Source: a virus
Strand: one strand, 5' to 3'
DNA length: 64,000 nt
Virus record (IMG/VR): IMGVR_UViG_3300018080_000099
Coordinates: 192,001-256,000 of that record
The position numbers were made by a program, and so were the translations under genes. Shown one piece after another: positions 25,575 through 61,863 of the stretch. Below the pieces are notes generated by a model. The model was not told where the DNA came from, did no database searches, and worked only from the letters and a program-made list of their open reading frames with translations. How positions within the stretch are numbered: the stretch's first letter is position 1; every line of letters begins with the position of its first letter.

Positions 25575-25581
25575 AACATCA

Positions 25582-25589
25582 TATAAATA
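25582..25589 (+). promoter_or_regulatory. TATAAATA late-promoter motif
   Basis: Exact motif about 35 nt upstream of the 25623 start. Confidence 0.3.
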
Positions 25590-25622
25590 CTCACTCTACA
25601 AGGAAATCAATGAGGTAGGTTA

Positions 25623-27300
25623 ATGGCAACATATTATGTAGACTTTGCAGTTACTGGAACAGGACAAACAGGAACCGAATACGACCCATTTGGTTGGAAT
25701 GAATTTTCAGCTTCATGGGGCAGTAATACTTACTATATTCGGGGAACTTACTATTATGTTGGCGCAGGCTCAGTGTCGTATTTTGGTGGTAATAACGATA
25801 CAGTTTATGCTTGGGATTTGGATAAGTATGGGCCTTGGAGATTGAGTGCAAGTAATACCACAACGGTTTATGATGTCAGAGCAGACATAAACGATGGCAT
25901 ATGGGAAATTGACGTTACAAGCTCTATTTTTAGGGCAATTCATAATTGCTACGTCTATACTGCCATCCAAAATGGAACAACAAATTTAGATTTCAATGAT
26001 TCCACAATTATTGTTCCGGGCCATCAGATTCCAACTAATCCTAACGTTATTTCAGGATGTATTCTTGATACAGGCGGCACTTTTGCACTACAATCGAATG
26101 TAAGCGCTACAATAGAAAATACTATCACAGATAGATTAAGCCTTAGTGGTTCAACACCAGTTTTTACTACTGCCGGTGGTTCTGGACAGGCGGCAATAGA
26201 TTTGGGAGGAAACGTCTATAGCGCAACTTTTAGCGCGGCACCTTCATTTACTGAAACTGATTTGACCGAATTCCGTTTGGGAGTTTCTACAACATCCGCT
26301 TTTGGACCTTCGTGGTCTCAAGGACGAACAAAGTTCTGGGTTTCGTTTGACTTAACGTCTACTGCCGGTTTGGGATATGAAAACGACCCTTATGGATGGA
26401 ATGAGTTCTCAGCTTCTTGGGGTGGCGGAAAGGAATACTATATTAAGGGTTCTATTGTCGAACCATTGGTGAAAATTGGTGGAGTTGATTATATTGGAAA
26501 TGGCGCTGATACTTGGTATGCTTGGGATATGGATAAGTATGGTCCTTGGAGATTTCAACCAGCAAGCAACCCCGACTGGCATCAGTTTGATGCGGAATTA
26601 CACGAAGGAATAATTGATAGTAGTTTTACGGATACTGTATTTGGAGATGTATATGATTGTGCTGTGGAAGTAAATTGGCGTAGTAGTATCGGAAACTTCG
26701 ATTTCTACGACTGTACTTTTGTGGGAACGGATTCCGTAATATTAGGCGGTACAGTTAATACTCTGAGTGGGTGCATTGCTAAAACAACATCATCGTATGG
26801 ACTCGGACAGAATGATACTGGTAGAATTTTGGACTCCGTTACAAACCGTTTAGCAGTTTCTGGAGGAGGCTCACCATTTTACTCACAAGCCGCGGCACCA
26901 CCGCAGTACTATGACGGAACGGGAACAGTTTATGGAGAAACGCTGAATAATTGGCCGGGACTGTATGAACAAGAACTTTCGGCATATGCTCTTGGAGTTT
27001 CACTCACAAGCGGATTTGGTCCGTACTGGTTGTCAGCAACCCCTGCTTTGTATGTCAATCTTGATACTTCAGCTGTGGCTGGGGATGGGTCGAGTAGCAA
27101 TCCATACAACTACACACAGTTTGCCGACTTTGGGCAAGGGTCAAAGAATCAATATATTTTAGATGTAGGATTAAGTGCTACATTCAGATTGAAGGGAGAA
27201 ACAACTCTATCGGGAACAAACCGTAAGGTTCTTTTCCCCGGCACAACAACAACTGTTACATCGTGGGAGCCACTGTCAGCATATGGTCCGTGGAGATTCC
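25623..27300 (+). repeat. three dispersed about 230-nt coding repeats (adaptor module) within one gene
   Basis: Nucleotide-level similarity, e.g. gatttggataagtatgggccttggagattg (25816) against gatatggataagtatggtccttggagattt (26527). Confidence 0.6.
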
Positions 27301-27914
27301 ATAACACGATTTCAGCGGTTGATGCCGACTCAGCTGTTGAGTTTGGGGCCAAGACAATTCGAAATGGAATCATTTATACGAGTGGAGCAACGGAGGACGT
27401 TAATACGGAAATATACTTCTTCACGAAGGAGATGGAAAACCTGTTTGTTTTGGGAAACCCAACATTCGCCTCGTATTGGTATGATAGAGGAATATTATAT
27501 TGCTTCCAGCCATATTGTGGAGTTGAGGATGGCGAGGACATAGATATTAAAGGTTCTACAATTCTGTCAATGCAAAGTAGTGCATACGGTGGTTTTGGAT
27601 ATGATTTAAGGAGTAACTTCAACTTTGATATAAAGGATGATGTTATAATCGTATCAGCATTTACTGACAGGAATACAAATGGGGCTGGTACGAATGCACA
27701 GACATCAGCCATTAGCGCTGTCATACAACATACTGTGAACTATGAGTCTGACGTTAATACTATCAGCGGAGACATAAATGATATTTCGGGAGGTCCGGGT
27801 AATCAGTTCGATTGGACACCACCGACATTTCCTACATGGGATGGAGACCGTGATGAATATAAGTTTGAAACATTTGGAGCAGGAATAACAATTAGTGGTT
27901 CAGGAGATTGGTAA
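25623..27914 (+). CDS. tail fibre/tailspike protein carrying three tandem copies of the shared adaptor module
   Basis: 763 aa. Module copies at about aa 1-75, 238-318 and 468-555, each with YV(D/S/N)...GTG...DP(F/Y)...AWD(L/M)DKYGPWR(L/F). Confidence 0.55.
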   Translation: MATYYVDFAVTGTGQTGTEYDPFGWNEFSASWGSNTYYIRGTYYYVGAGSVSYFGGNNDTVYAWDLDKYGPWRLSASNTTTVYDVRADINDGIWEIDVTSSIFRAIHNCYVYTAIQNGTTNLDFNDSTIIVPGHQIPTNPNVISGCILDTGGTFALQSNVSATIENTITDRLSLSGSTPVFTTAGGSGQAAIDLGGNVYSATFSAAPSFTETDLTEFRLGVSTTSAFGPSWSQGRTKFWVSFDLTSTAGLGYENDPYGWNEFSASWGGGKEYYIKGSIVEPLVKIGGVDYIGNGADTWYAWDMDKYGPWRFQPASNPDWHQFDAELHEGIIDSSFTDTVFGDVYDCAVEVNWRSSIGNFDFYDCTFVGTDSVILGGTVNTLSGCIAKTTSSYGLGQNDTGRILDSVTNRLAVSGGGSPFYSQAAAPPQYYDGTGTVYGETLNNWPGLYEQELSAYALGVSLTSGFGPYWLSATPALYVNLDTSAVAGDGSSSNPYNYTQFADFGQGSKNQYILDVGLSATFRLKGETTLSGTNRKVLFPGTTTTVTSWEPLSAYGPWRFHNTISAVDADSAVEFGAKTIRNGIIYTSGATEDVNTEIYFFTKEMENLFVLGNPTFASYWYDRGILYCFQPYCGVEDGEDIDIKGSTILSMQSSAYGGFGYDLRSNFNFDIKDDVIIVSAFTDRNTNGAGTNAQTSAISAVIQHTVNYESDVNTISGDINDISGGPGNQFDWTPPTFPTWDGDRDEYKFETFGAGITISGSGDW

Positions 27915-29779
27915 TGGCCGAACAGGGATATGGCACAGGACTATGGGGAGAACCTAGAGAGGGACCGGGTGCTTTTGACTTTGAGGAAGATGAGTCGAGT
28001 AGCTCAATTTCATCTTCGGAGTCGTCAGTGTCTGAGTCATCAGTTTCGGAATCTTCGGATTCGTCATCGGATTCTTCAGTATCTGAGTCATCAGTATCGT
28101 TTTCTTCTGAATCTTCATCGGACTCATCTTCTGATTCTTCAGTATCGGAGTCGTCAGAATCTTCATCGGATTCATCAGTATCCGAGTCATCGGACTCTTC
28201 ATCAGATTCGTCAGTATCGGAGTCGTCAGAATCGTCATCAGATTCGTCAGTTTCAGAATCTTCGGAATCGTCATCAGATTCGTCAGTATCGGAGTCGTCA
28301 GAATCTTCATCAGATTCGTCAGTATCGGAGTCGTCAGAATCTTCATCGGATTCATCAGTTTCAGAATCTTCGGAATCGTCATCAGATTCGTCAGTTTCAG
28401 AATCTTCGGAATCGTCATCAGATTCGTCAGTTTCAGAATCTTCGGAATCGTCATCGGATTCTTCGGAGTCGTCATCGTATTCGAGTTCATCAGGAGATGA
28501 ACCAGATACATTCTATGTAGACCTTACAGAAGTAACAACAGGACATGCTGGAACAAGTGCGGACCCATTCAACTATGATGACATGGTTGACAGAATTACA
28601 ACATGGCAAGTTGATGGTGATGAATTTCTTATTAGTGGTTCACGTGAAGTTAGTGCAAATCTTTTGGCTAATGAATACCACTACTTTACAATGGATGCTT
28701 GGGACATAGATGTAGCAGGCCCTTGGAGATTAAAATATAACGGAACGTCAGCGGCAACAATTCAGTGCAGAAGAGCTTTTTTGAAAAATGGTGTTTTAGA
28801 CACTAATAATTTTGCTGCTCAGCTTGGGCGAATGCAAGATATGGTTTGGATTGCTCGCAACCTCCAAAATCATTGGGCATGGCCATTAAGTGCGGGTGAT
28901 AGAAGTAGCGATTATAATACTCTTATAAACTTAAATACTTCGGCGGATGTTCCAGTTGTTCCTGAAAATATAACACAAGTTTATTTGAATTCAATAACTA
29001 CATCAGGAGTTTCTGCCGAAGGAATCGAATATAATAACTGTATTTTCTATACGAGTGGTGGAAATAATCCTTTCGCAGATGGTGGAACATCGGCCGGTAC
29101 TTATCCAATATCAGCTTTTGATTGTATTACGGACGCTCCAACGTCTGCGGAGTTTTTGATTACAAGTGCGGATGGTGGTTGGCCGGGATTGGTTGAAAAC
29201 AATTTCCAGTATGGTGTTGAGCTAACAACAATTAATCCTGTCCCAGAGTGGTCAGCATCTGACTTGTCTCTATTCAATTTGGATATAGGAGCAGGCTACG
29301 GTCCAAGATGGTCTTGGTCGTCTACCTCTGGTAGCATTGGTGCATTCTACTTCGGTCCAATTAGTGAAACTGTATCGGCTGATGTACTTGAAGTTTCGGC
29401 AGTACTGCTTATACCGACAGTCACGCTTGTCAACCCTCAGAGTGCGGAAGCAACTCCGCAGAGAATGTCGCATAGACACATTCTGCTTCAGCCGACTGTT
29501 TACGCAACACAGGATATTAAGGTTGACTTTGTTGGAAATGTTCTTTCAGGACCATCACCGTTGGTAGTTCAGTTCACGGCATTTGTAACATTCTCGCCTG
29601 AAATGAAGAATAAATATAGAGTGTCGCAGTATACGTGGTGCTTCAATTACGACCCAACAAACTCAGTTTGTAAAGAAGATGTGGTTGTCACAACCAACAA
29701 TCCGATAACTCGTACATTTACAGGTTACAGTGGGCAAGGATATTCTGTGACCTGTGCTGTAACAATAGAACCAATTTAA
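27908..29779 (+). CDS. tail fibre protein with a Ser/Asp/Glu-rich tandem repeat, the shared module and a C-terminal PKD-like domain
   Basis: 623 aa. 12-residue VSESSESSSDSS unit repeated many times. Then FYVDLTEVTTGHAGTSADPFNYDDM...DAWDIDVAGPWRL. C-terminal VDFVGNVLSGPSPLVVQFTAF...YTWCFNYD. Confidence 0.55.
   Translation: MVMAEQGYGTGLWGEPREGPGAFDFEEDESSSSISSSESSVSESSVSESSDSSSDSSVSESSVSFSSESSSDSSSDSSVSESSESSSDSSVSESSDSSSDSSVSESSESSSDSSVSESSESSSDSSVSESSESSSDSSVSESSESSSDSSVSESSESSSDSSVSESSESSSDSSVSESSESSSDSSESSSYSSSSGDEPDTFYVDLTEVTTGHAGTSADPFNYDDMVDRITTWQVDGDEFLISGSREVSANLLANEYHYFTMDAWDIDVAGPWRLKYNGTSAATIQCRRAFLKNGVLDTNNFAAQLGRMQDMVWIARNLQNHWAWPLSAGDRSSDYNTLINLNTSADVPVVPENITQVYLNSITTSGVSAEGIEYNNCIFYTSGGNNPFADGGTSAGTYPISAFDCITDAPTSAEFLITSADGGWPGLVENNFQYGVELTTINPVPEWSASDLSLFNLDIGAGYGPRWSWSSTSGSIGAFYFGPISETVSADVLEVSAVLLIPTVTLVNPQSAEATPQRMSHRHILLQPTVYATQDIKVDFVGNVLSGPSPLVVQFTAFVTFSPEMKNKYRVSQYTWCFNYDPTNSVCKEDVVVTTNNPITRTFTGYSGQGYSVTCAVTIEPI
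28005..28490 (+). repeat. 36-nt in-frame tandem repeat (about 12 copies) encoding the SSDSSVSESSES low-complexity region
   Basis: Units such as tcagattcgtcagtatcggagtcgtcagaatcttca recur directly in the sequence. Confidence 0.85.
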
Positions 29780-29789
29780 GGGGTAACGA

Positions 29790-31424
29790 ATGGCTTACGA
29801 TACAGGACTATGGGGAAATCCAAGAGATGGAATAGGGTTCTTTAGCTTTGCTACAAGCTCAGTTTCCGTTGACTTTTCCGTAGAGCCTCAATTGAACTTT
29901 GTTGGAAACGACTTTACGTTTTCCGCAGACGTTACTTCAGCAGGCTTGCCGACAGATTGGCAGAGTACTTATACAGTTAACTTTGGAGATTCGACGGTTA
30001 CGGCAACAACAAACTTCTCTATTACGCGTGCATATATAGGACGCGGTACTTACAATACGACTCATACATACGAGATTACGGACGGAGCCGATACGAAGTT
30101 TTATGTCACATCTGCTATTACAGGAATTGAGGTAAATCCTCTTCCGGATGCGACTTTCATTGGAATTCCGAGAGCAAACAGCCCATTGACATTCTATGAT
30201 ACTAAGGGTGGATACTACATTACGAGTACAATTGTTAGTGCGGACTGGGACTTTGGAGATGGATTTACGTCAGCAACGACTGACACAACAGATACATTTG
30301 AACACACATATACTACCGAAGGAATTTATACTGTTTCAGTTTCAGCACATGATATAAACGGAAATGTTGGAGTAGATACATTATCAGTTGGTATTGTGGC
30401 TGGGTCGGTATCGGCTCTCAAACAGGATTACATTACACTTTGTGGTCCAGACATGCTTGGAAGATATGGTGTCAATCGTCAAATCAACTTGACTAAATTC
30501 CTACCACTGTATTTGAAGGGTGGAGAAACTGAAAGCTTTTTGGTACTGTTCGAAGAGTTCCTTAATACAATGTTTGATGGAAAGGACGGATGGGTGACTA
30601 GTGCTGACGAGCTTGATATAACCAAGAGTTGGGCTCCTAATACAGCAACATCGGCAGAGCCAGAAAGAACATTTACATATGACCTTTGTGGAACTGATAC
30701 GCCAACAGATGCTAACGCGGTGTCTGCACTGAGTTTGCACTATACACAGGATTCACTTTCCGCAAATCCGAAGATGAGCATTTTGGAGAAAGTTTACAGA
30801 ATTGCGGAACTACATGACCCAGACCTGATAGATATTGATTATATTCAGTACTTCGCTCAGAACTTGGGTTATCAGGTTAGTGTGTTCCGAGACGAGCTTG
30901 GGGTTAGTGGAACAGCGGCAACGTACGCTGTCTCGAATCCGGCTTGTGGTACAAATGAGATAAATAGGTATTTAAGGTTTGTTGTAAGAAACCTACCTAC
31001 ATGGTACAAGATTAAAACGACCCGAAACGCTGTTAAGGTAATGCTTTACTCATTTGGGCTCGTTGGTGACATTATAGAGTTCTATACGAACAATTACTTA
31101 CCGAGAGATGACGGTGGAAACTGGAGACTCGATTTTAATGAGGATTTGGCCGAGATACCTGATAAATGGTATCCGACACCACACTTCTCAATCCTTGTCA
31201 ATTTGGATGAAAGTGCTGACATTTCATTTGACGTAGCACGAAGGGATAAGGTGATTCGCGCAATTGAGTCTATCCGCCCAGTTAACAACGTGTTCCGAAG
31301 ATTGTCAGGATTTCTCCAAAGAACATACAACATCGAGATGGCGCTTTGGACAAGGATGACAAGATATAAGGAAATAAAATCAAACGGATACTCCAACAGC
31401 TGGTGGGATGGTTCACCACTGTAA
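29790..31424 (+). CDS. tail fibre-associated protein with PKD domains
   Basis: N-terminus GLWGNPRDGIGFF parallels the 27908 gene N-terminus GLWGEPREGPGAF. WDFGDGFTSATTD...YTVSVSAHD is a PKD signature. Confidence 0.5.
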   Translation: MAYDTGLWGNPRDGIGFFSFATSSVSVDFSVEPQLNFVGNDFTFSADVTSAGLPTDWQSTYTVNFGDSTVTATTNFSITRAYIGRGTYNTTHTYEITDGADTKFYVTSAITGIEVNPLPDATFIGIPRANSPLTFYDTKGGYYITSTIVSADWDFGDGFTSATTDTTDTFEHTYTTEGIYTVSVSAHDINGNVGVDTLSVGIVAGSVSALKQDYITLCGPDMLGRYGVNRQINLTKFLPLYLKGGETESFLVLFEEFLNTMFDGKDGWVTSADELDITKSWAPNTATSAEPERTFTYDLCGTDTPTDANAVSALSLHYTQDSLSANPKMSILEKVYRIAELHDPDLIDIDYIQYFAQNLGYQVSVFRDELGVSGTAATYAVSNPACGTNEINRYLRFVVRNLPTWYKIKTTRNAVKVMLYSFGLVGDIIEFYTNNYLPRDDGGNWRLDFNEDLAEIPDKWYPTPHFSILVNLDESADISFDVARRDKVIRAIESIRPVNNVFRRLSGFLQRTYNIEMALWTRMTRYKEIKSNGYSNSWWDGSPL

Positions 31425-31427
31425 AGA

Positions 31428-31435
31428 TATAAATA
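31428..31435 (+). promoter_or_regulatory. TATAAATA late-promoter motif
   Basis: Exact motif about 40 nt upstream of the 31473 start. Confidence 0.3.
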
Positions 31436-31472
31436 ATCAGGAGATACGATTTGTCAATAGAAGGAGTTTAAC

Positions 31473-34148: not shown

Positions 34149-34165
34149 TTTGAAGGAGGTTTGAA

Positions 34166-43680: not shown

Positions 43681-43688
43681 TATAAATA
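43681..43688 (+). promoter_or_regulatory. TATAAATA motif upstream of the HNH gene
   Basis: Exact motif 19 nt upstream of the 43707 ATG. Confidence 0.25.
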
Positions 43689-43706: not shown

Positions 43707-44549
43707 ATGAAAGTTATTTGTAGCAATTGTAATAAAGAAATAGAAAGAAAACCTTCAAATATAAAAAGAAGTAAAAACATTTTTTGTTCGAGGGAATGTA
43801 GATATGATTGGCAAAAGTATAATTTTTGTGGGGAAAAGAATCCTAACTTTGGGAATGTTTGGAGTGATGAGCAAAAAATAAAACAATCTGAAATTGTGAA
43901 AAGTAAAATGAATAGTGATATTGTTAAGTTTAAGTGTGGTTCCGCAAATAGAGGTAAAAAGTTTAGTCAAGAGATACGAGATAAAATATCCAAAGGCCAT
44001 GAAGGATTAACTTATAAACCAATGTCAGATGAGGGTAGAAGAAATATTGGAATTGCTTCTTCTAAAAAGTTTACAGATGATTATAAAAAAGCTCATAAGA
44101 AAAAAATGATTGATTTAGGGTACTGGGTTTCTGAAAGTGATAAGTCTGATTGGGAGATTTATTTTGATGAATCTAATTGGATAGAAAGAATGTTCGATAG
44201 AGCTAATGATAAAGAACAAATTCTTTTGAAGGAGTTTGGTGTTTTTAACTGTAGAAATAATAGTAAAGGAGTTGTTCGTGACCATGCTTATTCAAGAAAA
44301 AGTGGTTTTGAAAATAAAGTTTTTCCTGAAATATTAAGGCATCCTTGTAATTGTAGAATTATAACTCATTCTGATAATACTAAAAAAAGAAAAGCAAGGT
44401 ATGTTGATGCTGATAGTATAACTCTACAGTCATTATTTAACGAAATAATTAAATACGAAGGCAAATGGGATGAGCAACAGAAATGTTTAAGTTTAATTAA
44501 TGATTATTTTAGTGGAAAGAGATGGAATAGAAATGTTACTAAAAGTTAA
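43707..44549 (+). CDS. HNH-type homing endonuclease with NUMOD3 repeats
   Basis: GEKNPNFGNVWSDEQKIKQSE and SANRGKKFSQEIRDKISKGH resemble NUMOD3. N-terminal Cys cluster CSNCNKEI...FCSRECRYDW. C-terminal VRDHAY...N...HPCNCRIITHSDN is HNH-like. The region is clearly AT-richer than its flanks. Confidence 0.55.
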   Translation: MKVICSNCNKEIERKPSNIKRSKNIFCSRECRYDWQKYNFCGEKNPNFGNVWSDEQKIKQSEIVKSKMNSDIVKFKCGSANRGKKFSQEIRDKISKGHEGLTYKPMSDEGRRNIGIASSKKFTDDYKKAHKKKMIDLGYWVSESDKSDWEIYFDESNWIERMFDRANDKEQILLKEFGVFNCRNNSKGVVRDHAYSRKSGFENKVFPEILRHPCNCRIITHSDNTKKRKARYVDADSITLQSLFNEIIKYEGKWDEQQKCLSLINDYFSGKRWNRNVTKS

Positions 44550-45129
44550 AATGAAAAATCCTTTTTGGGTAGCGAGCGATTGTCATTGGTATCATACTAA
44601 TATTATTAAGTATTGCCAAAGACCTTTTACTAATGAAGGCGACCTTGACGATTCAGGTAACTGGATTTCAGAAGAAGTTGCTCAGAAAAGCACCGAGCTT
44701 ATGAACGAGACAATGTTCAATAATTGGCAGAGCCTAATCGGAGAAAAAGACAAGGTTTTCTTTTTGGGCGACTGGGTTATTGGTGCTGAGAATAAATACA
44801 AAACAGGTCAGATACTCCACGACCAACTGCATGGGCGCAAAATTTTCATTCAGGGAAACCACGACGAACACATCCACAGGTTCACGAACATCCGAGTTAT
44901 CGACGGAACTATTCAGGTTAGTTACAAAGGCCTGAACTTCATGATGTCACATGAGCCTATTTGGGAACACTCCCCAGACATTGACATCTATATCTGTGGA
45001 CATATACATAACAATGAGGAAAACGAAAGACTGTTGCCTAATATGATAAATGTATCAATGGAGATGACAGACTACAAGCCTGTCCACATTGATGCCATCA
45101 TTGAGAAAGTAGGAGTGCAACATGATTAG
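44533..45129 (+). CDS. calcineurin-like metallophosphoesterase
   Basis: SDCHWYH, GDWV, GNHDEH and CGHIHN are metallophosphatase motifs. Alternative start at 44551 (MKNPFW). Confidence 0.6.
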   Translation: MLLKVKMKNPFWVASDCHWYHTNIIKYCQRPFTNEGDLDDSGNWISEEVAQKSTELMNETMFNNWQSLIGEKDKVFFLGDWVIGAENKYKTGQILHDQLHGRKIFIQGNHDEHIHRFTNIRVIDGTIQVSYKGLNFMMSHEPIWEHSPDIDIYICGHIHNNEENERLLPNMINVSMEMTDYKPVHIDAIIEKVGVQHD

Positions 45130-45904
45130 GTTTCTTACAGGTTGGTCAAATCCCGGCGGCTCAACAGTCGCCTTCATTAACTTGGTCAACGCACTGAACA
45201 AATATGGACACGAATCTATCCTCGGAGGCCCTCACACATGGCACTTAGATAAGTGTAAATCCGAACAGGTAGTGCGCGGCAATAAGCTATTAGTCCATAA
45301 AGATGACATCATTGTAGCACATTACATGAGAATCTTTGTGGCTCGCCCGCCTGTGAAAGGATTCTTCTTGTCGAGCCAAGAGCAGGAATTTTTTCCACTG
45401 AATACAATTGACTACGGCATCTTTGATAAGATACACTACGTCAGTGAACATCATAAAGATTTTCATGGCATTGCCGGGCATCCCCACTTCATTATCCCGA
45501 ACATTTTAGAAGACCTAAAACCCAATAGTAAGCCAACTAAAAAGATTGGTGGCATTATTGGCACGATTGACAAAAGCAAAAGAGTTAGTACTTGTATCAA
45601 GGAAGCTCTTGAAGATGGATGTGACAAGGTTCTTATCTACGGAATGGTTTCAGACCCGTGGTACTGGCAGGATAAAATAACCAAGATGATTGACGGAAGG
45701 AAAGTCCAGTATATGGGATTTGAGGATGACAAGCAAAAAATGTACGATTCAGTTACCGATGTCTACGCAGGCTTTGATGTTCGGGGAAATGTGGAAGGCG
45801 AGTGCAATCTCACTGAAACAAACTTCCACGGGCAGTCTTTCCGAAAGGAAGAATTGGACAAGAAGTCTATTGTCAAAAGATGGGTGAAGGAGTTGGGAGT
45901 ATAA
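45122..45904 (+). CDS. putative glycosyltransferase
   Basis: 260 aa ORF heading the glycan cluster. No family-specific motif recognised. Confidence 0.3.
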   Translation: MIRFLTGWSNPGGSTVAFINLVNALNKYGHESILGGPHTWHLDKCKSEQVVRGNKLLVHKDDIIVAHYMRIFVARPPVKGFFLSSQEQEFFPLNTIDYGIFDKIHYVSEHHKDFHGIAGHPHFIIPNILEDLKPNSKPTKKIGGIIGTIDKSKRVSTCIKEALEDGCDKVLIYGMVSDPWYWQDKITKMIDGRKVQYMGFEDDKQKMYDSVTDVYAGFDVRGNVEGECNLTETNFHGQSFRKEELDKKSIVKRWVKELGV

Positions 45905-46593
45905 TGGACAAAATATCTGTCATTATCCCATGCTACAATCATGGGAAGCATTTAAGGGAAGCGATTGAATCGCTGTATTCCAACTGGCTGACGATTGAGA
46001 TGGATGTGATGGTTATTGATGATTGTAGTACTGACGATTCTTTTGAGGTTGCTCAAAAGCTTTCAAAGGAATTTGGATTCAAGACTCATCAGATGTCAAA
46101 GAACTCAAAGCCTGCAAAGGTTCGAAACACAGCAATCGGGATGATTGATGGAAACATTATTGTCTGCTTAGACGGTGATGATAAGTTACCCCCTCATTAC
46201 CTTCAAGAGAATTACAACAACATTCTCATGTATCAAGTTGACGTTTCGTATAACAACTCCGTGATGTTCGGCTCAACGAACCGGGAGTTGAATTGGCCTG
46301 AGTTTAACATTGAGACGCTTAGAAGAACCCCTTTCATTCATTGTACTTCAATGTTTCGAAAGGAAGCATGGGAGAAGGTTGGAGGGTTTGATGAGTCAAT
46401 GGTAGACGGCTGGGAAGATTATGATTTCTGGCTGAGAGTTGCCAATGCAGGATTTAAGTTCAAGAAATGTAATCAGACGTTTCTTTACTACCGACAAAGT
46501 GGTAATGAAAATAGAGATGTACAAGCCAAGGCGAAGCTTGATAAAATTCGTGCTTATATGAGAAACAAACACAAAGGGTTTTACTTGGGGTGA
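45904..46593 (+). CDS. family 2 glycosyltransferase
   Basis: MDKISVIIPCYNHGKHL...VIDDCSTDDS is the GT2 signature. TAATG overlap. Confidence 0.7.
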   Translation: MDKISVIIPCYNHGKHLREAIESLYSNWLTIEMDVMVIDDCSTDDSFEVAQKLSKEFGFKTHQMSKNSKPAKVRNTAIGMIDGNIIVCLDGDDKLPPHYLQENYNNILMYQVDVSYNNSVMFGSTNRELNWPEFNIETLRRTPFIHCTSMFRKEAWEKVGGFDESMVDGWEDYDFWLRVANAGFKFKKCNQTFLYYRQSGNENRDVQAKAKLDKIRAYMRNKHKGFYLG

Positions 46594-46610
46594 GTATGAA
46601 AGAGAATAAA

Positions 46611-47351
46611 ATGAAAGTCGTTATTCCAGTGTACAACGCCGAAAAGTGGATTCAGAAATGTATCTGGTCTTTGTACAATCAGTCTTATCAGAACTGGGAA
46701 GCCGTTATTGTCAATGATGCGTCAACTGACAAGACGCTGGATGTTATTAAGGATTTCATGAAAGACATTCCAGCTGAAGAGGTTCACAAAAAGAAAAGGT
46801 TCCGTGTCCTTGACAGAACCATGAATGTAGGAGCCCTTGAAAATATCGACTATGGTACGGAGCTACTCTGTGACGATGATGAGGACGTAGTTGTGCTGTT
46901 GGACGGCGATGACTGGCTGGCGGCAAATGATGTCCTGACACATCTGAACGAACTGTATCAAGATGAAACTTGGCTAACCTACGGACAGTTTCAGTTCAAT
47001 AGTAACGGAAACATTTCAAGTAACCGACAGATAACCGACACCCGAACGTATAGAACGAAGCAGTCATTTTGTTCCTCACATTTGCGAACATATAAGTATA
47101 AGATATGGAAACGCATAAAGAAGGACGACCTTAAGAATGGTGCCGGTAAGTATTATCCGATGGCATGGGATTTGTCCATCATGTACCCATTGATTGAGAT
47201 GGCCGGACCAAAAAGAATCAAGTGTGCTGATAAGGTGATGTACATTTACAATAACCAGAATCCAATCAACGACCATAAGAAAAACTACAAGCTCCAAGTG
47301 AGCTTAGACTTTGAAATCAGAAAGAAGCCACAGTACGCAGAACTACCATGA
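46611..47351 (+). CDS. family 2 glycosyltransferase
   Basis: MKVVIPVYNAEKWI...VIVNDASTDKT. Alternative starts at 46596 or 46590 (GTG). Confidence 0.65.
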   Translation: MKVVIPVYNAEKWIQKCIWSLYNQSYQNWEAVIVNDASTDKTLDVIKDFMKDIPAEEVHKKKRFRVLDRTMNVGALENIDYGTELLCDDDEDVVVLLDGDDWLAANDVLTHLNELYQDETWLTYGQFQFNSNGNISSNRQITDTRTYRTKQSFCSSHLRTYKYKIWKRIKKDDLKNGAGKYYPMAWDLSIMYPLIEMAGPKRIKCADKVMYIYNNQNPINDHKKNYKLQVSLDFEIRKKPQYAELP

Positions 47352-48421
47352 AAGTTATTATCAACAGAAGCGGCGGTCCCTTAAAAATCCCAGAAATCAG
47401 AAAAGAGATTCCGTGGGATGGGAAGCAGTACATACTTAACGATATTCTGACTAACAAGTATCGCAAATACTTGGAGGTTGTCGATGTAGACAAACAAAAA
47501 GAGATTGAGGACTTGCAAGTTAAGGTCAGAGATTTGAAGGTTAATCTTGACAATACCATGATGGAAAACGACAAGCTCCAAGATTTCATTGGCAAGCTTC
47601 GTGACAATACAAAGATTCCTTGTTTGGACTTCTTGTATTCATTCCACTTCAACGAAAATATGGACGAGGCAGTTGAAAGACTGAGATGTTCCATTGAAAG
47701 CATACGGCACCAGAATGTTCGTGTCTGTGTTTGCAATACTTCCAAAAAGAGTATCAAAAGCAAGCTCCGTGGGCTGGGAAAGATTGCATATTTTCATAAT
47801 CCTTTGGAGCTGAATGTTTACAACAAGCCCAAGACAATCAATCTAGGAGTTAAGAAACTTGTCAAGACAGACTACTTCTTTCTCTCAGACATTGATTTGT
47901 ACTACCATCCGGACTTCGTTGCCAACATGGGAGTTGTTCTAAAGCTGACTGGGAATGTTCCTTACAGGATTGTTTTTCATAACAACAACATGGGACCCGG
48001 AGATTATCCTGAAAGTATTGAGGACTGTCACAATCTTTTCACAAACTCCAAAGATACCTCGAGGTCAATGAAGGGATTGGCACCGGGCAACGGATTAATT
48101 TACCGTCCTTCTTTTGAAGCCATTGAGGGGTTTGATGAAATGTATGTAGGGTACGGCCCAGAGGACGCGGACTTCAATTATAGAATCCGCAAGATATGTG
48201 AGTACATAGAAATAGATTTGGAAGGCTTCAACACGTATCATCTTTTCCATGCGAACCAAACTAGAGACTCACAAGAGTACGCTAACAATAGAATCAGATG
48301 TGACTACATGATGAAAATGGATAGAAAGAATAACTACAACATCATAAAGTCCGGGCAGATTGAACCGCCCAGAAAGCTAAAGTTTGTTATAGACGAGAAC
48401 ATTCGGGAAGTGGTAATATGA
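47348..48421 (+). CDS. glycosyltransferase with a beta4GalT-type (GT7-like) motif and an N-terminal coiled coil
   Basis: FLSDIDLYY DXD-like. EGFDEMYVGYGPEDADFNYRI resembles the GWGGEDDDxxxR block. Confidence 0.45.
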   Translation: MKVIINRSGGPLKIPEIRKEIPWDGKQYILNDILTNKYRKYLEVVDVDKQKEIEDLQVKVRDLKVNLDNTMMENDKLQDFIGKLRDNTKIPCLDFLYSFHFNENMDEAVERLRCSIESIRHQNVRVCVCNTSKKSIKSKLRGLGKIAYFHNPLELNVYNKPKTINLGVKKLVKTDYFFLSDIDLYYHPDFVANMGVVLKLTGNVPYRIVFHNNNMGPGDYPESIEDCHNLFTNSKDTSRSMKGLAPGNGLIYRPSFEAIEGFDEMYVGYGPEDADFNYRIRKICEYIEIDLEGFNTYHLFHANQTRDSQEYANNRIRCDYMMKMDRKNNYNIIKSGQIEPPRKLKFVIDENIREVVI

Positions 48422-49185
48422 TTATTCCAATGCTAAAAGGTGGAGTGGGAAACCAACTATTCCAAATTGCATGTGCATATGCTTATGCGAAAAAGCATGG
48501 CACAGACTTTGCCATTAACTATAGCCTGAGCTTTTGTCCTAATCAGGGATTTTCAGCACCCAAATACAAGGACACGCTTTTCAAGAACATATCTGTCACA
48601 ACAGTACATCCTCATAAAATCATGAAGGAGAACGGGAACGCCTACCGAGAACTTCCATTTCTTGAAGGCGACTTCATTTTGGATGGGTTCTTTCAGTCTG
48701 AGAAGTTCTTTGCGGATTGTGTAGACGAGATTAAAGAACTGTTTGTGTTCCCTGAAAATGTCAAGAGCGCTGTAGACAAATTCATGAAGGTAAAACTAAG
48801 TACGCCATCCAATCATCCCATTGCCGGAGTTCATATTCGAAGGGGAGACTACAAAAAATTCAGTCACGAATATATTCTCAATGGTTCGGAATACTACTTA
48901 GCCGCCGCCAAGCATCTGCCGGGTTTTGTGTCAGTGGTTTGTACAGACGACTGGAGTTCAGTGAGTAAGGAAATGACATTTGCCAAAGCCGAGAAGTCAC
49001 CATTCACAGACGAGGTTCACGACCTTTACCTTCTTTCCCAGTGTGATGCAGTTGTCATGTGTAACAGCAGTTTCTCATGGTGGGCGGCATTTCTTGGCAA
49101 AGATAAGAAGGTCATTGCTCCGAACAACTGGTTTGTCCACAAGTCCGCAGAGGACATGTATTGTAAGGATTGGATAAGAATATGA
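48418..49185 (+). CDS. alpha-1,2-fucosyltransferase (GT11)
   Basis: GGVGNQLFQIACAYAYA matches GT11 motif I (LGNQMFQYAFA). Size and the FFQSEKFF block are consistent. Confidence 0.7.
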   Translation: MIIPMLKGGVGNQLFQIACAYAYAKKHGTDFAINYSLSFCPNQGFSAPKYKDTLFKNISVTTVHPHKIMKENGNAYRELPFLEGDFILDGFFQSEKFFADCVDEIKELFVFPENVKSAVDKFMKVKLSTPSNHPIAGVHIRRGDYKKFSHEYILNGSEYYLAAAKHLPGFVSVVCTDDWSSVSKEMTFAKAEKSPFTDEVHDLYLLSQCDAVVMCNSSFSWWAAFLGKDKKVIAPNNWFVHKSAEDMYCKDWIRI

Positions 49186-50015
49186 TGGAAGTGAAAATAG
49201 TTGATAGGAACTTCGCTCACGCATATCTATTTGGCAACGGAGACTTGAAGATGTCTGCCAAAGAGATGCAGTGGTATAGGGGCAATGATGCGAGAGACAT
49301 TTGCTTTTTTACAGACATGACTCTGGGAGAAGTGAATAACTTTCAACTTCCACGGAGCCGTATCAATGTGGCATGGCTTTTGGAACCACCTTCAGTTGCT
49401 TTACAAACGTACAATTGGATTAAGTCAAATTACGAGTTCTTTGACTACGTTTTGACTTACAACAAGGAGTTGCTTTCGATTTCACCTAAGTTCAAATGGT
49501 ATCCACACGGCGGCTGTTGGATTTATCCTAAGGACTGGAAAGTCCATCGGAAGTCCAAAGACGTTTCCATGATTGCTTCCAACAAGAACTTTACAGCTGG
49601 ACATCGTTTGAGACATGATGTGATGAATCGGCTCGGTAGTAACATAGACTTAGTATGTGGACGAGGGCATAAACCCTTTGAATACAAACTCGATGTTTTG
49701 AAAGATTATAGATACTCCATAGTCATAGAGAATGGCAGATACGAAACATACTTCACAGAGAAGCTTATAGACTGCTTCATGACCGGAACAGTTCCGATTT
49801 ATTGGGGATGTTCGCTTAAGGGTTTGTTTGAGGAAGGCGGCATCTTGTACTTCGAAACAATAGATGAGCTACAAGAAATTCTGAGGAAAATCCGTGAGGG
49901 TGAGATTGATTATGACAAGATGCTTTGTTCGGTGTACTACAATGTCAAAGTCGCAGAACGATATGCAATAACTGAGAACTGGATTTACGAGAACTTCATA
50001 AAGAGGATAGTATGA
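49182..50015 (+). CDS. alpha-1,3/4-fucosyltransferase-like (GT10)
   Basis: YRYSIVIENGRYETYFTEKLIDCFMTGTVPIYWG matches the GT10 motif FYLAFENS...Y(I/V)TEK...G(A/T)VPVV. ATG at 49182 chosen over the upstream TTG. Confidence 0.6.
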   Translation: MMEVKIVDRNFAHAYLFGNGDLKMSAKEMQWYRGNDARDICFFTDMTLGEVNNFQLPRSRINVAWLLEPPSVALQTYNWIKSNYEFFDYVLTYNKELLSISPKFKWYPHGGCWIYPKDWKVHRKSKDVSMIASNKNFTAGHRLRHDVMNRLGSNIDLVCGRGHKPFEYKLDVLKDYRYSIVIENGRYETYFTEKLIDCFMTGTVPIYWGCSLKGLFEEGGILYFETIDELQEILRKIREGEIDYDKMLCSVYYNVKVAERYAITENWIYENFIKRIV

Positions 50016-51361
50016 TTAAGCTAGTAATTTTCGACCTCGATGGTGTCCTAACCGAATCAAAAGACTTACACTTCAATGCTTTGAATAGAGCTTTGGAGGA
50101 TTTCGGGTTCACCGCTATCACTTACAAAGAACACATCTCCAAGTATGATGGTAAGCCGACCGCAGTGAAGCTTGCGATAAAGGGAGTCGATGAAGAACTA
50201 CACCTGAAGATTAATGAGCGCAAGCAGGAAATCACGGCGGACCTTTTGGATAAGAAGATTAAGAAGGACGAGAAGTTTATTGACTTGTTCAAACGGCTGA
50301 AGCAAGACGGATACATTATCAACGTGGCATCCAATTCTGTGATGTACACGATACAGTTGGTTCTTTTCAAGATGGGAGTTATGCGGTATGTCGACCACAT
50401 CGTATCAAATCAAGATGTGGAATTTGGCAAACCTCATCCAGAGATGTACATGAAGTGTATGGTACATTCTAAGGTCGGCCCAAAGGACGCAATCATTATT
50501 GAGGATTCCTACGTGGGAAGGCAGGGTGCCTTCAACTCTGGGGCTCATCTGTGTGCAGTCCGAAATCCTGATGAAGTAACATACGAGTTCATTAAAAACA
50601 ATATTGCAATCGCAAACGGTGAGAAACCGAAGTGGAAGGGGAACAATATGAATATACTTATTCCTATGGCTGGCGCTGGTAGTCGGTTCACAAAGGCGGG
50701 ATTTACTTTCCCGAAGCCTTTGATTGAAGTAAACGGAAAGCCCATGATTCAGGTTGTCGTGGACAATATCAACATTGAAGGGAACTACATCTTCATTGTT
50801 CGCAAGGAACACTACGAGAAGTACAATCTGAATTACATGCTTGATATGATTGCGCCGGGCTGTAAGATTGTTCAGGTTGACCGTTTGACGGAAGGCGCGG
50901 CATGTACAACCCTTCTTGCCAAGGAATACATCGACAATGACGAACAGCTTTTGATTGCCAACTCAGACCAGTGGATTGACTGGGATAGCTCAGACTTCAT
51001 GTATTCCGTTCAGGGAAACCATGTGGACGGCGGAGTTCTGACATTCCCGAATGCTCATCCGAAGTGGTCTTATGCCAAGGTTGACAAGAACGGCTTTGTG
51101 ACTGACATTAAGGAGAAGAAGGTTATCTCCAACAAAGCAACTGTTGGTATCTATCATTGGAAACGAGGTTCGGATTATGTGAGGTTCGCTGAGCAAATGA
51201 TAGAGAAGGATGTTCGTGTCAATGGTGAGTTCTATGTGGCTCCTGTCTACAATGAAGCTATTGCCGACGGAAAGAAGTTTAAGATTTATGATGTGAAGAA
51301 GATGATGGGACTGGGAACACCGGAAGACTTGGACATCTTTTTGAAGGAAAAGCTTGGATGA
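50012..51361 (+). CDS. bifunctional HAD-phosphatase / sugar-phosphate nucleotidyltransferase
   Basis: N-terminal LVIFDLDGVLTESKD (HAD motif I). C-terminal half MNILIPMAGAGSRF...KPLIEVNGKPMI is the NTP_transferase signature. Confidence 0.6.
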   Translation: MIKLVIFDLDGVLTESKDLHFNALNRALEDFGFTAITYKEHISKYDGKPTAVKLAIKGVDEELHLKINERKQEITADLLDKKIKKDEKFIDLFKRLKQDGYIINVASNSVMYTIQLVLFKMGVMRYVDHIVSNQDVEFGKPHPEMYMKCMVHSKVGPKDAIIIEDSYVGRQGAFNSGAHLCAVRNPDEVTYEFIKNNIAIANGEKPKWKGNNMNILIPMAGAGSRFTKAGFTFPKPLIEVNGKPMIQVVVDNINIEGNYIFIVRKEHYEKYNLNYMLDMIAPGCKIVQVDRLTEGAACTTLLAKEYIDNDEQLLIANSDQWIDWDSSDFMYSVQGNHVDGGVLTFPNAHPKWSYAKVDKNGFVTDIKEKKVISNKATVGIYHWKRGSDYVRFAEQMIEKDVRVNGEFYVAPVYNEAIADGKKFKIYDVKKMMGLGTPEDLDIFLKEKLG

Positions 51362-51969
51362 AAATTGTAGTAGTCGGGATGTTTCGAGCAGGCAGTACGG
51401 TTTTGTTCAACATGATTCGTTATATGCTCATTGAGGAATATGGGAAAGACGAAGTGTACTCATGTTATTATCCTAAGCGCAATCCGAAGAAAGAGAAAAA
51501 ATATGTTGTGATGAAACAGCATGACTTTGATGCCGGCCTTCTTGAAGAATCCGATATGGTGTTTACTACAAGAAGGGACATCCGAGATGTCGTAGCATCA
51601 CTCATTCGGAGAGATGGGCGACATCGGTGGAAGTCCATTCCGAAAGTTTGTCAGTGGGCCAAGGACTGTTACGACGGATGGAAAAAACATTCAACGTATG
51701 AGTTTGTTTACGAAAGATATAAAGCCAATCCCTTGAAAGTCATCAAAGAAGTCGGTGCCATATTGAACATTGACTGTAAGGCTAGGAAGATTCAAGAAAA
51801 GTTGGAGGCCCTTAAAAAGCCACGACAACCAAGGGAAACTCTGATAATGTCAGCCAAACACGTTACAGATGGCTCAGTCCATTCATTTGCAAAGACATTG
51901 GACGAAAAGGAAATTAAAATTATAGAGGAAATGGCAAATGATTTACTGTATAGGAAACAGCCATGTTAA
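51358..51969 (+). CDS. sulfotransferase
   Basis: VGMFRAGSTVLFNMI resembles the 5'-PSB loop. TRRDIRDVVASLIRR resembles the 3'-PB motif. Confidence 0.55.
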   Translation: MKIVVVGMFRAGSTVLFNMIRYMLIEEYGKDEVYSCYYPKRNPKKEKKYVVMKQHDFDAGLLEESDMVFTTRRDIRDVVASLIRRDGRHRWKSIPKVCQWAKDCYDGWKKHSTYEFVYERYKANPLKVIKEVGAILNIDCKARKIQEKLEALKKPRQPRETLIMSAKHVTDGSVHSFAKTLDEKEIKIIEEMANDLLYRKQPC

Positions 51970-52564
51970 TACTTTTTCAAACTCCAAACCGTTATGCTTC
52001 AGCTTTCATAACAAGCATTTTGTTGGCCACAGTATAGGACCAATAATCGCTTATAACTTTAGGAAGAATCATCTTTCTAAAGTGCTGAACTATTTGAAGT
52101 CCACGAGTATCCAAAAGAAAAATGACTTCGTGACATTGGTTGTTGGGGAAGTTGACTGTAGACTTCATTTACCAAGGCAGGCAGATTTACAGAAAAGAAA
52201 GGACAAAGATATGGCTGAAGAATGTACTCAAAGATTGATGGAATGTTATGATGAGTTAAGAGATAAAGGATTCAGAGTACTTGTTTGTGGCACGCATCCT
52301 ACCACAACTTATACTGAAAAAGATATTGACAATGTAGTAGTCGGCCCGATATACGGAGATGTTGAGAGAAGAAATCAGATATGTTTGTACTGGAATGAGT
52401 CATTGAAAACCATGAGTGAAGAGCGGAATATCCCCTTCATTTCTATCTATAAATATCTTGTCGATGCAAACAACATTACTAAGATGGAATTCTATCAGGA
52501 CTATTGCCATCTTAAAAGCGATAGAGTTTTTGAATTTATCCTGAGGGAACTGGAATCATTATGA
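51938..52564 (+). CDS. hypothetical protein, possibly SGNH/GDSL-like hydrolase
   Basis: N-terminus MIYCIGNSHV weakly resembles SGNH block I. 208 aa. Confidence 0.3.
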   Translation: MIYCIGNSHVNTFSNSKPLCFSFHNKHFVGHSIGPIIAYNFRKNHLSKVLNYLKSTSIQKKNDFVTLVVGEVDCRLHLPRQADLQKRKDKDMAEECTQRLMECYDELRDKGFRVLVCGTHPTTTYTEKDIDNVVVGPIYGDVERRNQICLYWNESLKTMSEERNIPFISIYKYLVDANNITKMEFYQDYCHLKSDRVFEFILRELESL

Positions 52565-53316
52565 AATTGAGCTTCGATGATGTTAGAAACACGCAACAGG
52601 GCGCACCAGCTTTGATAGTCGCCCACGGGCCAAGTTCAAATGAATATTTGGACAAAATCGCTTACTACAAGAATCTGGGGTTTGTCATTGTAGGAACCAA
52701 TGACTGGTTCCTTTTTCACGATGAAGAACCTCATTATTCGGTAATGGCTAATAGTGTCTTTACAATTCAGACGAAACATGTTATCTTTAATAGATACAAT
52801 ACTAAGTTGGTGTATGCTGATTCAGTCGATGCGACTCCTAAGGAAATGGCAGAACAGGTTTTGAAAGTTGATTACCTTCCTTACGACCAACGCCACTTCA
52901 TGGGAATGCCGTGTGGATGCGGAGCCTGCTGTTCAAGGATAGACGGTTCAAGGCTTACGATTCAGGAAGAACTCCAAAAGTACTGTAACGCGGACAAGCA
53001 TTATGGAACGGGTGACACAGTTGCCCTCCATCAGATTGCTTTTGCAATCCTGTTAGGATGCAATCCGATTTACTTTGTGGGAGTTGACTTGGACTACCGA
53101 CTTGGCTTTGCAAGAAACACAGGAAACAAGACTTCAAAATCAGTTCACATTGGAGCTATAAACGATTATCGAGATAACATCCTAAAGGATATGCAGACAA
53201 TTAAAGAAATGGTTACTCCTTTGGGAGTGAAGATTGTAAACCTGAATAAAGCATCCACATGGGATGTGTTTGAAATTGGAGAGATTGATGAAGGTTTTCA
53301 GCCTAACGCCAGCTAG
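52561..53316 (+). CDS. Maf/DUF115-like or GT42 (CstII-like) nonulosonic-acid transferase (tentative)
   Basis: LIVAHGPSSNE and GCNPIYFVGVDLDY resemble CstII VIIAGNGPSLKE and GYKEIYLSGIDFYQ. Adjacent to the NeuA-like gene. Confidence 0.4.
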   Translation: MKLSFDDVRNTQQGAPALIVAHGPSSNEYLDKIAYYKNLGFVIVGTNDWFLFHDEEPHYSVMANSVFTIQTKHVIFNRYNTKLVYADSVDATPKEMAEQVLKVDYLPYDQRHFMGMPCGCGACCSRIDGSRLTIQEELQKYCNADKHYGTGDTVALHQIAFAILLGCNPIYFVGVDLDYRLGFARNTGNKTSKSVHIGAINDYRDNILKDMQTIKEMVTPLGVKIVNLNKASTWDVFEIGEIDEGFQPNAS

Positions 53317-55530: not shown

Positions 55531-55817
55531 TAATCAGGGTTGACATAGACGAAACTATATGTGAGAAGGTTGACAATGCCCGGTATCAAGATGCTACGCC
55601 GATACCCGAAAACATCGCCAAGATAAACCAACTATATAATGATGGACACACCATCATCTACTGGACGTCAAGAGGAATGACTACAGGGTTGGATTGGTCT
55701 GCTGTTACGCAAAGACAGCTCGTAGAGTGGGGTTGCAAGTTCAACAAGCTGGAAATGGGTAAGCCTTTCTATGACATGTTGATTTGTGACAAGAGTAAAA
55801 GGATTGAAGAAATATGA
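55527..55817 (+). CDS. small HAD-like hydrolase (tentative)
   Basis: MIIRVDIDETIC start resembles the HAD DxD motif. 96 aa. Confidence 0.3.
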   Translation: MIIRVDIDETICEKVDNARYQDATPIPENIAKINQLYNDGHTIIYWTSRGMTTGLDWSAVTQRQLVEWGCKFNKLEMGKPFYDMLICDKSKRIEEI

Positions 55818-56464: not shown

Positions 56465-56466
56465 AA

Positions 56467-61852: not shown

Positions 61853-61863
61853 GTCTTGACAAC

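Follow-up and report, generated by a model that had tools for sequence, protein, structure and literature searches.

A selected Ser-rich repeat tract, probably a disordered stalk, in a putative tailspike-like protein of a T4-like phage

We analysed a 64,000-nucleotide (nt) stretch of DNA from an uncultured T4-like phage (positions 192,001 to 256,000 of IMG/VR virus record IMGVR_UViG_3300018080_000099; hereinafter the window), in which one gene, hereinafter the target, encodes a protein of 621 amino acids (aa) with a long acidic Ser-rich tract. The tract peptide is under purifying selection, and neither chance nor fresh slippage accounts for it. We favour, with somewhat better than even confidence, the explanation that the tract forms a polyanionic, disordered stalk of variable length, maintained by selection, within a tailspike-like baseplate protein. 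This explanation is independent of whether the serines are modified. The target combines known kinds of element, namely tailspike-like receptor-binding proteins and Ser-rich stalks.

The Ser-rich tract and its repeat units

The target gene, its start signal, and the tract are located as follows.

27914..29779, + strand: target gene, 621 aa, predicted isoelectric point (pI) 4.05, net charge about −71, predicted mass 65.9 kDa (from sequence)
27903..27906, + strand: GGAG ribosome-binding site, 7 nt 5' of the ATG at 27914 (read from the sequence)
27995..28501, + strand: acidic Ser-rich tract, aa 28-196, 169 residues, predicted to be disordered (composition, model)
28136..28459, + strand: nine in-register 36-nt units, each encoding SSVSESSESSSD, aa 75-182, with one E-to-D change (Tandem Repeats Finder, translation)
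28229..28455, + strand: 47-nt exact direct repeats, 180 nt apart, starting at 28229 and 28409, which bound a five-unit indel

The tract consists of 113 Ser (67%), 24 Glu, 15 Asp, 13 Val, and 4 other residues; Thr, Ala, Pro, Asn, Gln, Lys, and Arg are absent. The acidic residues are regularly spaced and give the tract a net charge of about −39. Tandem Repeats Finder detects a 36-nt period at 28118-28461 (9.6 copies, 87% matches, no indels), which is enclosed by a wider repeat array from about 28016 to 28490. The nine regular SSVSESSESSSD units are flanked by about four degenerate units on the 5' side and one partial unit on the 3' side, in agreement with an earlier note on this DNA that had counted about 12 in-frame copies of a 36-nt unit. 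All three reading frames are open across the tract. No comparable Ser-rich (mucin-like) tract is present in the other open reading frame (ORF) products of the window.

The variation among the nine regular units is confined to silent sites almost entirely. Specifically, nine nucleotide columns are variable and all of them are third codon positions (hypergeometric p = 2.3e-6), so that the units have diverged at 9/12 third positions and at 0/24 first and second positions. Pairwise comparison of the nine units gives 166 synonymous versus 8 non-synonymous codon differences, and at least 11 of the 12 inferred changes are synonymous, versus 28% expected for random substitution in the unit (p ~7e-6). 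The restriction of variation to third codon positions therefore indicates purifying selection on the unit peptide, and the heavy silent-site divergence indicates that the units are old, with the Val, Glu, and Asp positions held constant. A strict unit peptide with varying silent sites fits a sequence-specific role, for example recognition by an enzyme.

The tract is on the disordered side of a charge-hydropathy plot (H 0.386 versus a boundary of 0.501), while the core of the target is on the folded side. AlphaFold2 (AF2) predicts no secondary structure for the tract, with a predicted local distance difference test score (pLDDT) of 30–39. The proteins of the surrounding structural module are acidic throughout (pI 4.0–4.7); halophily was considered as the source of this acidity and set aside, the median pI of 5.3 not being decisive.

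The repeat had also been proposed as a site of length variation, and two near-identical assemblies indeed differ by exactly five units. The protein P0014 (561 aa), encoded on a 263,805-bp ENA contig (L007), is the target protein minus exactly five units. Over 21.7 kb, the target assembly and L007 differ by one substitution, the 180-nt indel bounded by the 47-nt direct repeats, and one 30-nt indel, a tandem duplication short enough for single reads and k=141 to span. The longest exact internal repeat of the Ser array is 65 nt; because no internal repeat is longer than this, versus k=141 in one of the assemblies, simple assembler collapse is not an obvious explanation of the five-unit difference. 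The JGI and ENA assemblies recover the tract sequence independently, and the Logan assembly recovers its flanks. A comparison of copy number across relatives, as suggested earlier, gives five fewer units in L007 and no copy number from Logan, and an exact search for the 5' flank in JGI metagenome contigs returned nothing. Judging from the assembled sequences, the length polymorphism of the repeat is likely to be real.

A second repeat protein is found in the window. It is extremely acidic and Glu/Ala/Pro-rich (552 aa, 35829-37487, + strand), has no Pfam or PHROG match, and contains a 30-nt unit encoding EEGEDVEEAK (36892-36921) that is absent from the ENA assembly.

The target ORF is on the + strand, ends at 29779, and has two candidate starts, TTG at 27908 and ATG at 27914. 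The ATG is almost certainly the true start, because it overlaps the stop codon of the upstream gene (as TAATG, read from the sequence) and the GGAG is 7 nt upstream of it. The public protein record of the target, on a 264,037-bp JGI contig, is the 621-aa ATG form. The ORF of the earlier note is retained, while its length of 623 aa is replaced by 621 aa, since the TTG start lies two codons too early. The N-terminus of the protein reads MAEQGYGTGLWGEPREGPGAF. It has no signal peptide (maximum 12-aa Kyte-Doolittle hydropathy of −0.17 within the first 42 aa), and a sequence scan of the protein finds no LPXTG.

Sequence and family-profile searches with the target protein give no match in Pfam, PHROG, or PDB. 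Likewise, megablast of 25600-34200 and tblastn of the non-repeat part give no match in a collection of 50,697 phage records.

Domain architecture, relatives and genomic setting

BLAST and motif scans divide the target into four parts, namely the Ser-rich tract and the three parts listed here.

27914..27985, + strand: N-terminal GLWG-x-PR-x-G-x-GAF-x-F motif, aa 1-24 (BLASTP, motif scan, alignment)
28502..29323, + strand: YYVD...GPWR domain, aa 197-470, probable right-handed parallel β-helix of the pectate-lyase/tailspike type
29327..29776, + strand: conserved C-terminal module, aa 472-621, GSIGAFYFGP...LLQPTVYATQDI.VDFVG... (45-64% identity to P0001 and P0004-P0007)

The GLWG motif is common to the N-termini of the target, of the next gene (29790), and of the homologues P0003 and P0004, and is probably a docking or assembly element. 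The YYVD...GPWR body is, provisionally, a probable right-handed β-helix that resembles tailspikes. In an AF2 model of aa 197-621 computed with 41 family sequences, pLDDT is 84–96 for the first ~100 residues and below 50 in the middle. The C-terminal module ends in an Ig/PKD-like β-sandwich (aa 531-621, pLDDT 88–93), for which the best Foldseek matches are Ig/FN3-like and not significant. The full-length AF2 model (12 sequences) has a mean pLDDT of 42.8 and is usable for the C-terminal domain only. On these models, the target appears to be a tailspike-like protein of a late-operon baseplate module, the fold assignment being provisional. The label of receptor-binding fibre given to it earlier is not supported by any Pfam or PHROG match of the protein, and would be a suggestion from the position of the gene and the partly confident model. 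The target lies in the tail/baseplate module and its operon carries a late-promoter motif, as in the tailspike class. β-helix tailspikes (e.g., CBA120 TSP1, PDB 4oj5) are the nearest phage proteins, although the target has no sequence similarity to any solved tailspike. Its C-terminal Ig-like module differs from solved β-helix tailspikes. We know of no tailspike with a 169-residue Ser/acid stalk.

Besides the target, gene 25623 contains three copies of the YYVD...GPWR module, gene 24654 one, and gene 22219 a partial one. The presence of this module in four consecutive genes (22219-29779, + strand) suggests a multi-tailspike or branched receptor-binding apparatus. The YYVD...GPWR family is modular, has members of up to ~2000 aa, and has no Pfam model.

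A word-index search with the non-repeat part of the target found seven relatives, none of which has the Ser tract (0/7). In P0003 and P0004 the N-terminal motif leads straight into YYVDL, and the tract is a ~170-column insertion in the alignment. By this comparison, the tract is a lineage-specific insertion at a domain junction.

For the family as a whole we used an exhaustive HMMER search, which identified 346 members at E <= 1e-3, 150 of them listed; a word-indexed profile search, saturated at 8000 candidates, had added one protein. Among the 150 listed members, five have low-complexity Ser/Glu, Ser/Pro, or Thr/Glu/Ala/Pro linkers, four of which (4/5) are located directly after a GLWG...GAFYF-type motif. 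P0147, the positional orthologue of the target in the same syntenic slot, has an (SSSSE)x5 linker at a different inter-module junction, encoded by five identical 15-nt units AGT TCA TCT TCT GAG (L017, 4477-4590). From its sequence, this Ser/Glu expansion is independent and recent. The junction after the GLWG motif thus seems to gain hydrophilic Ser/Thr-rich linkers repeatedly, and the linker of the target is by far the longest and the most evolved. Scans of IMG/VR for relatives and for a two-unit degenerate repeat pattern returned nothing.

The neighbourhood of the target is a T4-like myovirus structural module. In order, it encodes the major head protein, a gp3-like sheath stabiliser, the large terminase, the tail sheath, the tail tube, and the baseplate hub, followed by gp5-like, gp25-like, and gp6-like proteins, unannotated genes including the target, a PKD protein, an 891-aa protein, a second gp19-like tail-tube paralogue, and RegA. 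This gene order recurs around homologues of the target in other contigs, and the PKD-domain gene is kept directly downstream of family members in relatives. The flanking genes and the late-promoter motifs that matter most here are as follows.

25623..27914, + strand: upstream paralogue, 763 aa, three YYVD...GPWR modules, stop overlapping the target start
29790..31424, + strand: downstream PKD-domain protein, 544 aa, N-terminal GLWG motif (motif scan, Pfam)
25582..25589, + strand: TATAAATA, T4-type late-promoter motif, 34 nt upstream of the first gene of the target operon
43681..43688, + strand: TATAAATA, T4-type late-promoter motif, 19 nt upstream of the first gene of a glycan island

The phage evidently uses T4-type late promoters, judging from the distribution of the motif. 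TATAAATA has 18 matches in the window versus 2.25 expected (eight-fold), 17 of the 18 being on the + (coding) strand and 11 of the 18 falling within the non-coding 4% of the window. The sites are mostly 3–71 nt upstream of start codons (e.g., 55, 2359, 8031, 8051, 10718, 31428, and 61864).

The glycan island and known glycosylation systems

The earlier note linked the tract to a glycan island of the same phage, described as having a Maf/CstII-like transferase next to NeuB- and NeuA-like genes. These genes are all present at the level of Pfam.

43707..61852, + strand: glycan island, 25 mutually overlapping genes, almost gap-free (Pfam, NCBIfam)
52561..53316, + strand: PF01973 (MptE-like) protein, 251 aa, single domain (Pfam, 41.1 bits versus a cut-off of 34.6)
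53264..53953, + strand: CMP-sugar cytidylyltransferase, CTP_transf_3, best weak match PseF, directly following the PF01973 gene
56726..57625, + strand: NeuB-family nonulosonic-acid synthase-like protein, no C-terminal SAF domain matched (Pfam 6e-62)

The island encodes at least five glycosyltransferases, among them two to three of GT2, one GT11, and one GT10, together with a HAD-nucleotidyltransferase fusion, a radical SAM/SPASM enzyme, methyltransferases, a sulfotransferase, a GDP-fucose-synthase-like epimerase, and a NUDIX hydrolase. It is 14 kb from the target, and ~8 kb of unrelated genes separate it from the structural module. Because a late-promoter motif precedes its first gene, the island is plausibly co-expressed with the virion proteins; a further TATAAATA site is 106 nt upstream of the PF01973 gene, and sigma-70-like sites show no enrichment in the island. 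Homologous islands of other phages also have late-promoter motifs, not cleanly at the island starts, and these were not used as evidence.

The Maf part of the earlier description is weakened. The best stretch of the PF01973 match covers profile positions 133-169 only. Compared with PDB, a profile of this family matches Cst-II (1ro7, 2x62) with an E value of 4.5e-5 and Maf (5mu5) with an E value of 0.14, and the protein alone, without the family profile, has no sequence match to Maf. The Cst-II alignment pairs query residues 16-50 with residues 3-34 (a weak stretch) and query residues 153-240 with residues 125-219. Tyr156 and Tyr162 of Cst-II, which we take to be phosphate-binding, align with the conserved Tyr179 and Tyr183 of the PF01973 family. 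For His188 of Cst-II, presumably the catalytic residue, there is no aligned conserved His in the family, which has a conserved DQRH motif elsewhere. Since the family profile is far closer to Cst-II than to Maf, the enzyme looks Cst-II-like, which points to a glycan rather than a Ser/Thr acceptor.

The setting of the gene can be compared with the Maf/cst loci (PDB 5mu5, 1ro7). As in these loci, the PF01973 gene is beside a CMP-sugar synthetase gene and near a NeuB homologue. However, Maf 5mu5 has 666 aa and three domains (N-terminal Rossmann-like, central Maf_flag10, C-terminal helical), whereas the island protein has 251 aa and one domain, and no flagellin is present. Cst-II-type enzymes (GT42) have a single domain of ~260-290 aa with an N-terminal GxGPSL nucleotide-binding motif, and the island protein agrees with this type by a collinear profile match. 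The Maf enzymes characterised so far are built of three domains, act preferentially on Ser/Thr with apolar neighbours in structured loops, and do not accept non-cognate flagellins (PMC11339370).

The NeuB-family gene is 3.4 kb downstream of the PF01973 gene, which is therefore linked to genes for CMP-nonulosonate. It scores 209 bits against NeuB_NnaB (cut-off 399.65) and 146 bits against PseI. The NeuB, PseI, and PseF models of NCBIfam are all far below their cut-offs and assign no sugar type.

Profile searches of the 25 island genes and of the scanned neighbours detected no initiating transferase of the GT4 kind (GtfA/SdgB-type; Glycos_transf_1, Glyco_trans_4), eight of the island ORFs being unannotated. 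The gene at 45122-45901 was considered as a GT4-like initiator from the look of its N-terminus (GG...GH) and was rejected, as Pfam, NCBIfam, and PDB gave no support.

The cassette of PF01973, cytidylyltransferase, and NeuB genes is kept in other widespread large phage contigs (L012-L014). These loci were seen to ±10 kb, with the structural proteins of the phages outside that range, and the sampled 20-kb loci contain no Ser/Thr-rich ORF.

The PF01973 family (~245 aa) has 240 homologues, many of them on 100-350-kb contigs, and all listed homologues but one carry PF01973. The gene always adjoins the cytidylyltransferase gene and is near NeuB (52561-53316; L012, L013, L014). From these sequences, the family appears to be an uncharacterised phage-borne clade of sialyltransferase-like enzymes. 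Directly 3' of the cytidylyltransferase gene are genes for a radical-SAM/SPASM enzyme (53916-54875, + strand) and a class I methyltransferase (54868-55530, + strand), an arrangement kept in L012; their products may modify the nonulosonic acid or another sugar.

The closest parallels to the arrangement of the target are in bacterial surface proteins. In serine-rich repeat protein (SRRP) adhesins, especially that of L. reuteri (PDB 5nxk), the order of anchor, Ser-rich stalk, and β-solenoid/β-helix head parallels the target. SRRPs are O-glycosylated on their repeats (PMC6973325), and the binding region of the L. reuteri SRRP is a β-solenoid (PMC5866549). However, SRRPs have an accessory-Sec (aSec) signal peptide, two Ser-rich regions, and a C-terminal LPXTG, while the target lacks both the signal peptide and LPXTG and has only one Ser-rich region (aa 28-196). 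SRRPs are linked to aSec and GtfA/GtfB genes, none of which were found among the island genes or the neighbours scanned, and their repeats are SAS/SES-type di- and tetrapeptides, in contrast to the SSVSESSESSSD unit. The anchor of the target is N-terminal, the reverse of the SRRP orientation, and its setting is a phage baseplate and not a cell wall. With none of these SRRP features found in its sequence or in the genes scanned, the target is best described as an analogue of SRRPs, not a homologue or a member.

The staphylococcal Ser-Asp (SD)-repeat proteins (ClfA/Sdr) similarly use an acidic Ser-rich disordered stalk to hold a binding domain off the surface. SdgB and SdgA attach N-acetylglucosamine to their SD repeats and thereby shield them from proteolysis (PMC3794999, PMC8561734). 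They differ from the target in a strict SD dipeptide and in dedicated transferases, which were not detected here, and there is no homology to the target.

Glycosylation of phage structural proteins has been described as rare, and glycoproteins of jumbo phage XacN1 have been described (PMC5852040). The best-known precedent for phage-encoded glycosyltransferases acting on virions is that of mycobacteriophages (via PMC12582341, PMC10568470). The present candidate differs in being a baseplate tailspike-like protein with an 18-kb island. The mycobacteriophage study (Freeman et al. 2023, Cell Host Microbe 31:1216) reportedly concerns capsid and tail-tube subunits and small sets of glycosyltransferases.

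Other observations concern the sequences around the island and a relative. A sulfotransferase gene (PF00685) is inside the baseplate cluster of a relative (L001, 12023-13111; 253-kb contig KRAE22-1 scaffold_24), two genes downstream of the family member P0006, which hints that a structural component of that phage or its glycan may be sulfated. Directly after the island is a transfer-messenger RNA (tmRNA) gene (61899-62258, + strand; Rfam RF00023, 121 bits versus a gathering score of 47), with the tag peptide AEDYAYAQAA* according to ARAGORN; it is preceded by TATAAATA (61864) and an 11/12 match to a sigma-70-like promoter (61856-61884), and the short ORFs at 62050-62442 are probably spurious. 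Small ORFs with an N-terminal M.F.EYYL.E or MSF.(D/E)(Y/F)L (41088, 41496, 62460, 63172, 63472, 3541, 3868, and 6184, + strand) suggest, by their sequences, a paralogous protein family scattered through the genome.

Explanations for the tract and their meaning

In the explanation that we favour, the stalk would have been inserted in this lineage between the GLWG...GAF.F assembly motif and the folded body, and the protein would be made from a late promoter together with its paralogues. As a hydrophilic, self-repelling tether, the stalk would let the head swing out from the baseplate; its contour length would be up to ~60 nm, and its size as a random coil a few nm. Its length would change in 12-residue steps by recombination or slippage between units. 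We infer the presence of the protein in the virion, the docking role of the N-terminus, and the function in reach or flexibility. Several points weigh against this explanation. The pattern of Ser, Val, Glu, and Asp is strict, while a generic spacer should tolerate Thr, Gly, Ala, and Pro, which suggests an extra sequence-specific constraint on the tract that a pure spacer model leaves unexplained. The middle third of the β-helix model has a pLDDT below 50 and Foldseek finds nothing significant for it. The five-unit difference comes from two short-read assemblies only, and the Logan assembly breaks on both sides of the array. Finally, the virion location and the baseplate docking of the N-terminal motif are themselves inferred.

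In a second explanation, the stalk would be a mucin-like O-glycosylation substrate of the phage's own late-expressed island, modified in the cytoplasm before assembly. This proposal, made in the earlier note, extends the stalk explanation, and we regard it as possible though we lean against it. The attached glycan might carry fucose, sulfate, and methyl groups and a nonulosonic-acid cap, and it would make the stalk stiffer, shield it from proteases, or mask it. In favour of this proposal, the existence of a large island with NeuB-like, cytidylyltransferase, PF01973, GDP-fucose-synthase-like, and sulfotransferase genes is confirmed; the island forms a single compact block that begins 19 nt downstream of a late-promoter motif, and the tract is the sole mucin-like sequence in the window. 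Its exact unit pattern is kept, resembling the SD and serine-rich repeats recognised by SdgB and GtfA/B (PMC3794999, PMC6973325), and other family members have Thr/Pro- and Ser/Pro-rich linkers, which are classic O-glycosylated types. The order of anchor, Ser-rich stalk, and β-solenoid is that of the L. reuteri SRRP (PMC5866549), and modification of virions by phage enzymes has precedents (Freeman et al. 2023, via PMC12582341; XacN1, PMC5852040). However, the 251-aa transferase is Cst-II-like and barely Maf-like, Maf enzymes themselves have other acceptor preferences and three domains (PMC11339370), and a GT4/GtfA/SdgB-type initiator was not found among the 25 island genes. The cassette is widespread in phages, whereas the tract is absent from close homologues and rare in the family, and the island is distant from the target and outside the structural module. 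Sets of GT10, GT11, NeuB, and Cst-II-like genes are typical of lipooligosaccharide (LOS) and lipopolysaccharide (LPS) decoration. We set beside it, and hold to be evenly balanced between true and false, the explanation that the island is unrelated to the target and the tract is unmodified, the island remodelling the LOS, LPS, or capsule of the host late in infection or building another glycoconjugate. Such remodelling could keep progeny phage from adsorbing to infected cells and debris. The similarity to Cst-II, an LOS sialyltransferase, argues for it, as does the resemblance of the GT10/GT11 fucosyltransferases, GDP-fucose synthase, and GT2s to bacterial LOS/O-antigen loci; so do the ~8 kb of unrelated genes between island and structural module and the presence of the cassette in many large phage contigs, with no Ser/Thr-rich ORF in the sampled 20-kb loci. 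The placement of the late promoter, however, suits virion modification at least equally, the other phages were inspected within ±10 kb of the cassette, a range that does not cover their structural proteins, and the strict conservation of the tract peptide is left to explain.

Two further explanations concern the tract itself. Its serines may be phosphorylated or sulfated, or the bare polyanion may bind divalent cations or cationic surfaces, so that the tract would be an electrostatic element; we consider this improbable. The net charge and the regular acidic spacing, the low pI of the module proteins, the sulfotransferase-like genes of the island, and the sulfotransferase gene in the L001 baseplate module speak for it, but no kinase was identified, no evidence of a metal-binding motif was found, and the idea is wholly inferential. 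Sulfotransferases of the families found in the island normally act on glycans or small molecules. Least probable is that the tract is a functionless product of neutral low-complexity slippage or an assembly artefact, even though the closest relatives have no tract, all three frames can be read through it, the assemblies disagree on copy number, and one of them is broken within the array. The divergence at 9/12 third versus 0/24 first and second positions is incompatible with neutrality and with recent slippage, and largely refutes this explanation; moreover, the longest exact repeat (65 nt) is shorter than k=141, JGI and ENA recover the tract independently, and similar linkers arose independently in family members.

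If the tract is a tether only, the target would illustrate clearly how a phage in nature extends and adjusts the distance over which a tailspike-like protein can act, by means of a selected, length-variable, polyanionic disordered linker, a solution that related phages would have reached independently and that would be useful for understanding and engineering receptor-binding modules. A phage-made mucin, in which the stalk is densely O-glycosylated by the late 18-kb island with a complex nonulosonic-acid-capped glycan and its length is tuned by gain and loss of repeats, is in our view rather doubtful. If true, it would be a viral counterpart of the serine-rich repeat adhesins, and receptor-binding proteins of tailed phages would gain their first glycosylated member. 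Glycosylation of the stalk by the island would carry virion glycosylation beyond the capsid and tail tube of mycobacteriophages to the apparatus by which aquatic T4-like phages recognise their hosts, and would give a function to an "auxiliary" glycan cassette that is widespread and for which the host is the usual presumed target. It would also provide a compact cytoplasmic system that places complex sialic-acid-like glycans on a simple repeat peptide.

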